From the NCBI GenBank assembly GCA_018696595.1, contig JABHQW010000007.1, positions 1 through 58,268 on the forward strand: a DNA stretch of 58,268 nucleotides. The letters run 5' to 3'. The notes beneath the pieces were generated by a model that saw nothing but the letters and a program-made list of their open reading frames with translations, made no database searches and was not told where the DNA came from. Origin of the DNA: Candidatus Woesearchaeota archaeon. GTDB lineage: Archaea; Nanobdellota; Nanobdellia; Woesearchaeales; GW2011-AR9. Of the stretch, positions 55,887 through 58,268 are shown piece by piece (the first letter of the stretch is position 1; each line of letters opens with the position of its first letter). The position numbers and the translations under genes were made by a program.

Positions 55887-56195
55887 TTAATCTTCTCTAA
55901 CTTTCTTAATCTTCTTTTTTACTTTCTCATAGAAAGGAACTTGACCAGTTTTAAAGATATAAGCAGCTACAACAATAAATAATCCAAGGATTGCAGCAGA
56001 ACTAATATAATTTGTTTCTTTAACAACAATTTGATCAGGATACTCGTGACATTCATAATCCGTACCACAATAAGCATTGCCTGGGCAATCTCTGTTACTG
56101 TTACATTCTCGCTGAGCAAAGCTAACAAGTACATAAGCCAATATAACTAAAGCTAAGACAACGGCAACAATTTGAATCATACCCTTTTTGTTCAT
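55887..56195 (-). CDS. Small membrane protein with class III-like signal peptide and Cys motif
   Basis: MNKKG/MIQIV..., CNSNRDCPGNAYCGTDYECH, C-terminal TM helix. Confidence 0.7.
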   Translation of the reverse strand: MNKKGMIQIVAVVLALVILAYVLVSFAQRECNSNRDCPGNAYCGTDYECHEYPDQIVVKETNYISSAAILGLFIVVAAYIFKTGQVPFYEKVKKKIKKVRED

Positions 56196-56263
56196 TGAAT
56201 CAAAGATTGAAACCAGGTTGTTTTTAAAGTTTGTGGAAGGTATATGATTTATATGTCAGAACC

Positions 56264-56303
56264 CACTAGACACACTAGACAACCTTGGAAAGAATATATA
56301 AAT
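56264..56303. promoter_or_regulatory. 40-bp sequence identical to 35106-35145, directly upstream of a LAGLIDADG gene
   Basis: Exact match, compared base by base. Confidence 0.7.
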
Positions 56304-56323
56304 GATTTTTACTACAAAGGATT

Positions 56324-56929
56324 GTGAAAAATAAAGAAAAACTTGCTGAGTTTGTTGGGATTATGCTAGGTGATGGATATATTGGTTTTCCAAACTGTCC
56401 ACGAATAAAGATTTCCTTCAATTCTATTGATGACAAAGAATATTTTGGTTTTGTTGAGAATCTGTTATCCCAATTATTTGATGCGAATATTATCACTAAT
56501 CATAGAAAAAATGAAAACACTTCGGAATTATTTATTTTTAAAAGAGAAGTAATTCGTTCAGTAATCAATGAATTAAAACTTTTACCTTCTCCAAAATGGG
56601 ATAGAGCAAGAATCCCTGGCTGGATTTTTAATCAAAATTTAGAAAGATTTGTTTTAAGAGGATATTTTGATACGGATGGGTGTGTTGTCATTACTAATAA
56701 CAATGGAACGAGGTATCCTAGACTGGAAATGAAAGTCAGCCCCTCACCAATGCAAAATCAATTTGTAAAGATTATTGACAAATTGGGTTTTAGATTTGGA
56801 GTTTATAATATTGGTAAAGGAAAAGTAAGAATTCAAATGAATGGGAAAGAACAATTAAGAAAATGGAATGAATTAGTTGGTTTTAGTAATAAGAAACACC
56901 AAAGAAAAAGTGATTCTTTCATTAATTAA
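56324..56929 (+). CDS. Free-standing LAGLIDADG homing-endonuclease-like protein
   Basis: EFVGIMLGDG and VLRGYFDTDG motifs. Confidence 0.88.
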   Translation: MKNKEKLAEFVGIMLGDGYIGFPNCPRIKISFNSIDDKEYFGFVENLLSQLFDANIITNHRKNENTSELFIFKREVIRSVINELKLLPSPKWDRARIPGWIFNQNLERFVLRGYFDTDGCVVITNNNGTRYPRLEMKVSPSPMQNQFVKIIDKLGFRFGVYNIGKGKVRIQMNGKEQLRKWNELVGFSNKKHQRKSDSFIN

Positions 56930-56933
56930 AAAA

Positions 56934-57102
56934 TAGCGGAGGGAGGACTTTCAATTTTAGGAGTTCGCTCCCAAAGATTTTGAATTCGGCAACCACAAGC
57001 AAAACTTAATGGTTTCCTCCGATCTCCGGGTTATGAGCCTTCCGCATCTAATACTTATTCATTACTAGATTCGGCGGGTACTCCTAGCTTCCCTACCCCG
57101 CT
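56934..57102 (-). tRNA. Initiator tRNA-Met(CAT) with three introns (57040-57071, 56985-57015, 56948-56978)
   Basis: Removing 32+31+31 nt gives a 75-nt cloverleaf with an A1-U72 pair, GGG/CCC anticodon stem and TTCAAAT T-loop; each insert forms a BHB-type motif. Confidence 0.92.
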
Positions 57103-57199
57103 ATGTAACTTGAGAACTGGTGATTCTTTAAAAAGATTTGCCTTTTATTCATGATTATGGGAAAATTTTAATAAACAGGTTTACATTTTCTTTTTTAAA

Positions 57200-57610
57200 A
57201 TGGAAAATTGTCAACTTTGTCAAGCGTACAAAAACGAGAAAAGTAGAATTTTTATGGAAAATGAGCATGCTTTTGCAATTATTGCCAAATGGCCGCTAAA
57301 TGAAGGGCATTCTATGGTTCTGCCAAAAAAACATGTAAAAGATCTTAGTGAATTACCTTCTGAAGAAATAAAAGCAGTCATGGAACTTTGTGAAAAAGTT
57401 GTTGCAAAAATAGACGAAAAATTAGATAAATCAACAATTACAATGTTAAATTCTAAAGGTTGTCGAACCCAAGAACATTTACATTTCCAGTTGGCCCCAT
57501 TAAAGAAAGAAATTGGAGTTAGAGATTTAGTTAACGCTTTAGAAAAAAATAGTTTATACCCAGAAGTTTCTGATGAACAAATGAATAAACTAGCAGACCA
57601 GTTTAAATGA
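57200..57610 (+). CDS. HIT family protein
   Basis: CQLC, GHSMVLPKKH, HLHFQ (divergent triad). Confidence 0.85.
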   Translation: MENCQLCQAYKNEKSRIFMENEHAFAIIAKWPLNEGHSMVLPKKHVKDLSELPSEEIKAVMELCEKVVAKIDEKLDKSTITMLNSKGCRTQEHLHFQLAPLKKEIGVRDLVNALEKNSLYPEVSDEQMNKLADQFK

Positions 57611-58039: not shown

Positions 58040-58268
58040 TTATTCTTTCTTTTCTTCTTCTGAATGTTCTTCTTTCTTTTTCAGATGTAGGGCTTCCTCA
58101 ACCTTCTCAACCACATGATGAACTTTTTCTCCAAAACTTTCATGTGCTTCTGGTTTAGGTTCTTCAGCAGGAGTTTCCTCTTCAGCAGGAGCTTCCTCTT
58201 CAGCAGGAGCTTCCTCTTCAGCAGGAGCTTCCTCTTCAGCAGGAGCTTCCTCTTCAGCAGGAGCTTCC
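58040..58268 (-). CDS. 3' end of a gene with an acidic EEAPAE-repeat tail (truncated by the window)
   Basis: Open frame ...EEAPAEEETPAEEPKPEAHESFGEKVHH...EEEKKE-stop. Confidence 0.65.
   Translation of the reverse strand, partial: EAPAEEEAPAEEEAPAEEEAPAEEEAPAEEETPAEEPKPEAHESFGEKVHHVVEKVEEALHLKKKEEHSEEEKKE
58161..58268 (-). repeat. 18-bp coding tandem repeat, 6 copies
   Basis: tcttcagcaggagcttcc x6 (first copy has one substitution). Confidence 0.95.

Follow-up and report, generated by a model that had tools for sequence, protein, structure and literature searches.

A three-intron initiator tRNA-Met gene next to a LAGLIDADG endonuclease gene in a DPANN archaeon

Archaeal tRNA genes carry up to three introns, which is the published maximum (PMC3239211), and a close counterpart of the gene described here is known from ARMAN-2, whose pre-tRNA-Pro(GGG) contains an intron pair at positions 53/54 and 59/60 (PMC3239211). 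Nested pre-tRNAs of Crenarchaeota, as summarized in PMC3728597 from Sugahara 2007 and Tocchini-Valentini 2009, contain up to three BHB introns per tRNA and assemble their last motif only after other introns have left. Disrupted initiator tRNA genes are known as well, for example the permuted gene in T. pendens. A precedent for the coupling of an intron to a separate enzyme is the collaborative homing of cyanophage psbA and F-CphI, in which the intron insertion site is the target of the enzyme (reviewed in PMC3984707).

Here we describe an initiator tRNA-Met (iMet) gene with three introns in a 58,268-nt stretch of DNA from a woesearchaeotal (DPANN) genome; this whole stretch is referred to as the window. 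The locus is very probably the single, functional initiator tRNA-Met gene of this archaeon, and its precursor would favour the loss of intron 2 before intron 3. It resembles the ARMAN-2 case in belonging to a DPANN genome rich in non-canonical introns and in having two introns at the same T-loop positions around the same 6-nt micro-exon. However, the ARMAN-2 gene encodes an elongator tRNA, its motifs are described as strict and its EndA is a three-unit epsilon2 enzyme with an ASL loop, whereas the present gene encodes an initiator tRNA, has a third intron at 29/30 and a relaxed intron 2, and is accompanied by a single plain alpha EndA unit. The crenarchaeal pre-tRNAs, in the same summarized accounts, share the number of introns and the dependence of the last motif on prior removal, but they are processed by an (alpha-beta)2 EndA with a CSL loop, and the dependence predicted here is partial. 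The psbA system likewise places an endonuclease gene beside, not inside, an intron-bearing gene; there, however, the introns are group I introns of phages and cleavage has been demonstrated, whereas here BHB introns interrupt an archaeal tRNA and the enzyme is a putative homing endonuclease of the LAGLIDADG type. The three-intron layout itself has precedents and is common within this archaeal family; beyond it, the loop-less EndA and the linkage between endonuclease and introns are worth following up.

Gene layout and intron motifs

The gene was found at exactly the coordinates given by the earlier note (Table 1), and re-derivation of the exons and the cloverleaf reproduced the intron positions, the intron lengths, the central helices and the TTCAAA exon that the note had proposed. 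Because the flanking bases differ at each junction, the splice junctions are unable to slide. Exon 1 has the same sequence, or very nearly so, in 80 family genomes, and CCA is not encoded at the 3′ end. The TATA-like box upstream is the presumed promoter of the gene, and the T6 run that follows it is its likely terminator.

Table 1. Features of the iMet locus and related loci (window coordinates unless a contig is named)
Feature	Coordinates	Strand	Description
iMet gene	56934..57102	-	169-nt precursor; exons of 31, 24, 6 and 14 nt, inserts of 32, 31 and 31 nt
Exon 1	57072..57102	-	31 nt; positions 1-29; acceptor 5′ strand, D-arm, first three anticodon-stem bases
Intron 1	57040..57071	-	32 nt; at 29/30; strict hBHBh' motif
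Exon 2	57016..57039	-	24 nt; positions 30-53; anticodon loop with CAT, variable loop, T-stem 5′ strand
Intron 2	56985..57015	-	31 nt; at 53/54; relaxed motif
Exon 3	56979..56984	-	6-nt micro-exon TTCAAA; T-loop positions 54-59
Intron 3	56948..56978	-	31 nt; at 59/60
Exon 4	56934..56947	-	14 nt; positions 60-73; T-stem 3′ strand, acceptor 3′ strand, discriminator A73
TATA-like box TTTTTAAA	57127..57134	-	-32..-25; within motif AAATCTTTTTAAAG, conserved upstream of relatives' iMet
T6 run	56928..56933	-	directly after A73; overlap with the stop codon of the endonuclease gene, which is convergent
Two-motif LAGLIDADG homing endonuclease gene	56324..56929	+	free-standing; 201 aa; I-DmoI-like; PF14528 31.5 bits
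Inverted block	55887..57610		iMet, promoter and endonuclease gene
EndA gene	contig 7, 39,417..40,040 (= L017:1474-2097)	-	207 aa
Two free-standing LAGLIDADG loci	contig 3, 151,271..152,321; contig 1, 36,005..36,796		one after tRNA-Arg(TCT), which has a 59/60 intron; one before tRNA-Leu, which has an 8/9 intron
ORF running off the window end	58040..58267	-	perfect EAPAEE repeats; acidic low-complexity protein

By the BHB rule, a 4-bp helix lies between two 3-nt bulges and the cut falls after the second bulge base. Intron 1 conforms with a CCGC/GCGG central helix (4/4 pairs), bulges CGA and AAG, an ATCTA/TAGAT distal helix and a short outer helix, and its distal helix covaries in seven orthologues (ATCTAGTA/TATTAGAT, ATCCATTA/TAATGGGT and ATCGGATA/TATCTGAT). 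The central helix of intron 2, CGGA/GCCG, has 3 bp plus an A51.G mismatch next to the 5′ bulge, the bulges being GGA and AAT and the distal helix AACCA/TGGTT; with three pairs, a mismatch and no outer helix, the intron is classed as a relaxed form. Its helix is built on T-stem bases 49–51, with G52, G53 and T54 in the bulge, and in relatives it co-varies with the T-stem (CGGA/GCCG, CGAA/TTCG and CGGA/TCCG), the CGAA/TTCG form (G005 and G107) occurring where the T-stem is GAAGG or GAAAG. Intron 3 has a fully paired TTCA/TGAA central helix (4/4), bulges AAA and AGT and a GGAG-CGAA-CTCC hairpin. The T-stem itself serves as its outer helix, so that the motif is strict only once the T-stem forms. 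In each of the 11 genes that lack intron 2 this outer helix consists of a perfect 5-bp T-stem, and in none of the seven that carry intron 2 can it form with the neighbouring sequence. T54 is thus used twice: it occupies the third bulge position of intron 2 and opens the central helix of intron 3. The earlier note had argued from this double use of U54 that two strict motifs cannot coexist; the argument is correct, and the clash extends beyond U54 to the T-stem (bases 49–53).

For the family survey, 113 genomes were searched with exon 2 and then with exon 1, and a spliced aligner parsed 79 iMet genes, the neighbouring introns of G093 and G032 being separated by eye. Twenty-five of these genes are intronless and 54 have introns, which fall at 7/8, 29/30, 37/38, ~43/44, 53/54 and 59/60. 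Three introns occur in nine genes: the exact layout of the window recurs in five other genomes from four other genera, and three further genes have other layouts. As the iMet gene of a same-genus genome (G001) is intronless, gain and loss of introns must be fast. The 43/44 introns (L131/G117, L133/G032, L106, L109 and L113) form a second family, in which the 3′ end is invariably GGGTAA|AG and ACCC is paired with GGGT.

The window's own genome has 59/60 introns that end in GAAAG|T in about 18 tRNA genes, a count restricted to matches with a G+C-rich T-stem because the genome-wide T-loop intron pattern is noisy. The Rfam model sees only 16 tRNAs there, at least nine of them with introns or as partial matches. 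A search of the genome for paralogues of the three iMet introns returned only chance matches of 10–13 nt. The description of the gene as unusual in the earlier note is therefore overstated, given introns in 54 of 79 family iMet genes, three of them in nine, the many 59/60 introns of this genome, and the ARMAN-2 pair and nested splicing already in print.

In one relative (G005, L035), the last 16 nt of iMet together with a 12-nt trailer (AATCCTTCCCTCGCTATTATTTTAGTTT) are repeated ~130 nt downstream. This repeat resembles either the att-type scar that an integrated element would leave or the remnant of a tRNA end.

A LAGLIDADG gene beside the iMet gene

The LAGLIDADG gene is convergent with iMet and stops 4 nt short of the tRNA 3′ end, its stop codon falling inside the T-run terminator. 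The gene is intact and retains the acidic residues of both motifs. I-DmoI, its best solved homing-endonuclease relative, matches over the whole length (E 5e-9), and only endonuclease domains of V-ATPase subunit A inteins score slightly better. I-DmoI is likewise a monomeric two-motif enzyme tied to an archaeal protein-spliced intron; however, it is encoded inside a long BHB-type 23S rRNA intron of Desulfurococcus mobilis, whereas the gene here is free-standing and the 31-nt introns are too short to hold a gene.

LAGLIDADG homologues adjoin iMet in eight of the 79 family genomes, beside a gene with a 53/54 intron in G000, G062 and G078 and beside one with a 43/44 intron in G063, G017, G033, G032 and G117; for the 43/44 introns this amounts to 5/8 loci with assessable flanks. 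All eight are thus found among the 21 genes with a 43/44 or 53/54 intron and none among the 58 lacking both (one-sided Fisher P = 8e-6, with a post hoc grouping and related genomes); compared with the 25 intronless genes alone, none of which has such a neighbour, the one-sided Fisher P value is 0.04, again among related genomes. Gain and loss can be followed in two genera. In g67, G078 has the endonuclease gene (an insertion of ~780 nt) and a 31-nt intron, and the syntenic locus of G080 has neither; in g59, G062 has both the gene and the intron, and G061 retains the intron without the gene. In the window's own genome, all three free-standing LAGLIDADG genes lie within ~120 nt of an intron-bearing tRNA gene. 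Across the family, a tRNA occurs within 200 nt at 16 or more of the 30 best loci, against an estimated ~2% expected by chance.

This association suggests collaborative homing. The three-intron iMet gene and the LAGLIDADG gene may, as a tentative possibility, constitute one selfish unit that spreads by collaborative homing of protein-spliced tRNA introns. In iMet alleles that lack introns, the target of the enzyme would lie in the variable loop and T-arm (approximately positions 40–56); the 53/54 intron here, like the 43/44 intron in relatives, would split the target and so render the carrier immune, and a recipient repairing the cut would thereby acquire both the introns and the endonuclease gene.

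Close to an even prospect is that the adjoining LAGLIDADG gene is a selfish gene that lands at tRNA ends and has no causal link to the introns. Such genes are abundant in the family, with more than 300 copies in 88 of the 113 genomes. Several copies adjoin intronless tRNAs of 72–73 nt, and a LAGLIDADG gene is absent from the vicinity of at least nine of the 12 iMet genes interrupted at 53/54. The iMet-adjacent copies are also only 27–29% identical to each other, with the exception of the G117 copy, which lies 89 nt upstream of its iMet and is the closest homologue of the window's gene (68% identical). Landing at tRNA ends without a link to introns is, on the other hand, at odds with the restriction of all eight iMet-adjacent copies to genes with a 43/44 or 53/54 intron, and with the joint presence or absence of endonuclease gene and 31-nt intron in the congeners G078 and G080 at an otherwise syntenic locus.

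As to the proposal cited in the earlier note that tRNA introns protect against integrating elements, the data point to a homing endonuclease rather than to integrases. Our literature search turned up no published work that connects free-standing endonucleases with archaeal tRNA introns, and a recent preprint on Asgard tRNA introns mentions neither homing nor LAGLIDADG. Compared with G001 (L031, same genus) and G016 (L028, another family genome), the block that carries iMet, its promoter and the endonuclease gene has the opposite orientation with respect to the conserved neighbouring genes, which are a HIT-family gene and a 102-aa membrane ORF. A search for inverted or direct repeats bounding this block returned weak AT-rich matches only, and no leftover 3′ half of an old tRNA was found beyond the endonuclease gene.

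Splicing endonuclease and predicted order of intron removal

The genome encodes one EndA with an N-terminal and a catalytic domain (PF01974, 102 bits in the genome search; PF02778, 57 bits in the protein) and one RtcB (560 bits). No second EndA subunit was detected with PF01974 or PF02778 at E values up to 10. The catalytic Tyr, His and Lys of EndA are all kept, and its nearest relatives belong to MAGs that carry the labels Woesearchaeota, Nanoarchaeota or Nanoarchaeia, in support of the DPANN assignment. Compared with the A. pernix alpha subunit, the enzyme has a 9-residue gap at the site of the Crenarchaea-specific loop (CSL); compared with the N. equitans alpha subunit, it has gaps of 2 and 4 residues at a 6-residue insertion between the catalytic Tyr and His, which is probably the L3 loop of Kaneta 2018. 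The loops near the active site that characterize broad-specificity EndA (CSL/L1, ASL/L2 or L3) are thus all lacking. The enzyme resembles the alpha4 homotetramer of M. jannaschii (PDB 1a79), to which it aligns end to end with no gaps or loop insertions and with the same catalytic Tyr, His and Lys. It differs in its 35-residue, Lys/Ser-rich N-terminal tail and in having to process relaxed non-canonical motifs, which alpha4 reportedly cannot. Published work links plain alpha-type EndA to strict motifs at 37/38 and relaxed or non-canonical introns to loop-bearing enzymes, and the recognition of intron 2 by a loop-less alpha EndA is therefore a mismatch with the published scheme. The same plain alpha EndA coexists with non-canonical introns in most tRNA genes of this genome.

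Transcription from the TATA box, ~27 nt upstream, would yield the 169-nt precursor with three BHB introns; EndA would cut each intron after the second base of the two 3-nt bulges, and RtcB would join the exons. Intron 1, with its self-contained strict motif, could be removed at any time. Introns 2 and 3 would compete: because the helix of intron 2 uses the 5′ strand of the T-stem, the T-stem must melt for the intron 2 motif, whereas intron 3 needs a paired T-stem and U54. These competing needs make removal of intron 2 first the favoured path. Once intron 2 had left, the T-stem would form, the intron 3 motif would be complete and intron 3 would be removed last.

We used ViennaRNA at 37 °C to compute the free-energy cost of forcing each BHB motif, both for the full precursor and for each intermediate. 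In the window RNA, the intron 1 BHB belongs to the minimum-free-energy fold whatever the context (cost ~0.5 kcal/mol). The intron 3 BHB costs 3.9 kcal/mol in the full precursor, 2.1 kcal/mol without intron 2 and 1.6 kcal/mol without introns 1 and 2; the intron 2 BHB costs 2.8 kcal/mol in the full precursor and 4.3 kcal/mol without intron 3. The predicted order preference in this RNA is thus modest, at 1–2 kcal/mol in nearest-neighbour folding at 37 °C, which leaves out a protein able to capture rare conformers. In all seven orthologues with both T-loop introns, the intron 3 BHB becomes cheaper after removal of intron 2, and the cost of the intron 2 BHB does not drop upon removal of intron 3 (7/7). 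Across these orthologues the intron 3 cost falls from 3.9–9.6 kcal/mol in the full precursor to 1.6–4.4 kcal/mol when the other introns are removed, and genes that have only intron 3 show costs of 0.4–3.2 kcal/mol, near the range of the precursors freed of other introns.

It is less likely, but quite conceivable, that the introns are real but removed independently and in no fixed order, a relaxed endonuclease capturing transient motifs, including intron 3 in a three-way junction. All BHB costs in the window RNA are small (0.5–4.3 kcal/mol), and after intron 1 has left, intron 2 and intron 3 form their BHBs with about the same probability (P 0.006 versus 0.0095), the minimum-free-energy fold of this intermediate already having both the TTCA/TGAA helix and the T-stem. 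Moreover, in the red alga C. merolae the order of removal tracks motif stability although the motifs fold independently (PMC3728597). Independent removal is harder to reconcile with the incompatible requirement of both motifs for T54 and T-stem bases 49–53, with the cheaper intron 3 motif after loss of intron 2 in all seven orthologues, and with the full precursors, in which the intron 3 BHB is far costlier than the intron 2 BHB in six of seven (up to 9.6 versus 2.3 kcal/mol). Folding therefore supports removal of intron 2 before intron 3 as the favoured path, a predicted preference and not a requirement, the dependence of intron 3 being a shift in energy and not all-or-none. Of the sequential splicing proposed in the earlier note, the order preference finds support in the predicted folding of all seven orthologues, whereas a strict requirement is not established by a margin of 1–2 kcal/mol in the window RNA.

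Identity of the predicted spliced product and implications

The joined exons give a 75-nt RNA that ARAGORN folds into a perfect tRNA-Met(CAT) cloverleaf, so that removal of the introns restores a canonical tRNA. An A1:U72 pair, three consecutive G:C pairs at 29–31/39–41 and a G11:C24 pair are hallmarks of initiator tRNAs, and the spliced product bears all of them. The exons are collinear, with no indels, with 25 intronless family orthologues, one of which (G027) differs by a single base, and this exon pattern is therefore not due to chance.

The genome is a draft of 1.19 Mb in 8 contigs and is 97% complete. No second iMet copy was found in it with an anticodon-arm pattern allowing 2 mismatches, a short-word BLAST of the spliced sequence or a CAT stem-loop search; an intact iMet copy elsewhere, which the earlier note had named as evidence against its reading, is thus not seen, and no further match to an iMet exon occurs. 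The genome also lacks any intact tRNA-like CAT anticodon stem-loop, from which it follows that elongator tRNA-Met and tRNA-Ile(CAT) must be interrupted too. At the iMet locus itself, no tRNA is called by ARAGORN, with or without the intron option, or by Rfam at the gathering score, as the earlier note had anticipated in suggesting that default annotation would miss the gene.

That the locus is instead a decaying pseudogene or an insertion-riddled remnant, the initiator tRNA being supplied from elsewhere, would fit the silence of the standard tRNA finders and the draft state of the assembly, but it is highly improbable in view of the single match to any iMet exon in a nearly complete genome, the intact exons and a product one base away from an intronless orthologue, the BHB geometry and covarying helices of each insert, the conserved promoter motif and T-run terminator, and the identical layout in other genomes. 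We therefore read the locus as a functional gene, and count in favour of this reading that the three-intron layout is kept in five other genomes with covarying distal helices.

Together, these results show that standard finders miss essential genes of DPANN archaea, here even the sole initiator tRNA; 'missing tRNAs' reported in such genomes are therefore annotation artefacts. The co-occurrence of a relaxed non-canonical motif and a loop-less alpha EndA contradicts the accepted view that intron diversity goes with the type of enzyme. Last, the endonuclease gene adjoining iMet and the family-wide link to 43/44 and 53/54 introns bear on how ORF-less archaeal tRNA introns move. If collaborative homing is indeed at work, it would provide a mechanism for the unexplained 'transposition' and the rapid gain and loss of archaeal tRNA introns.
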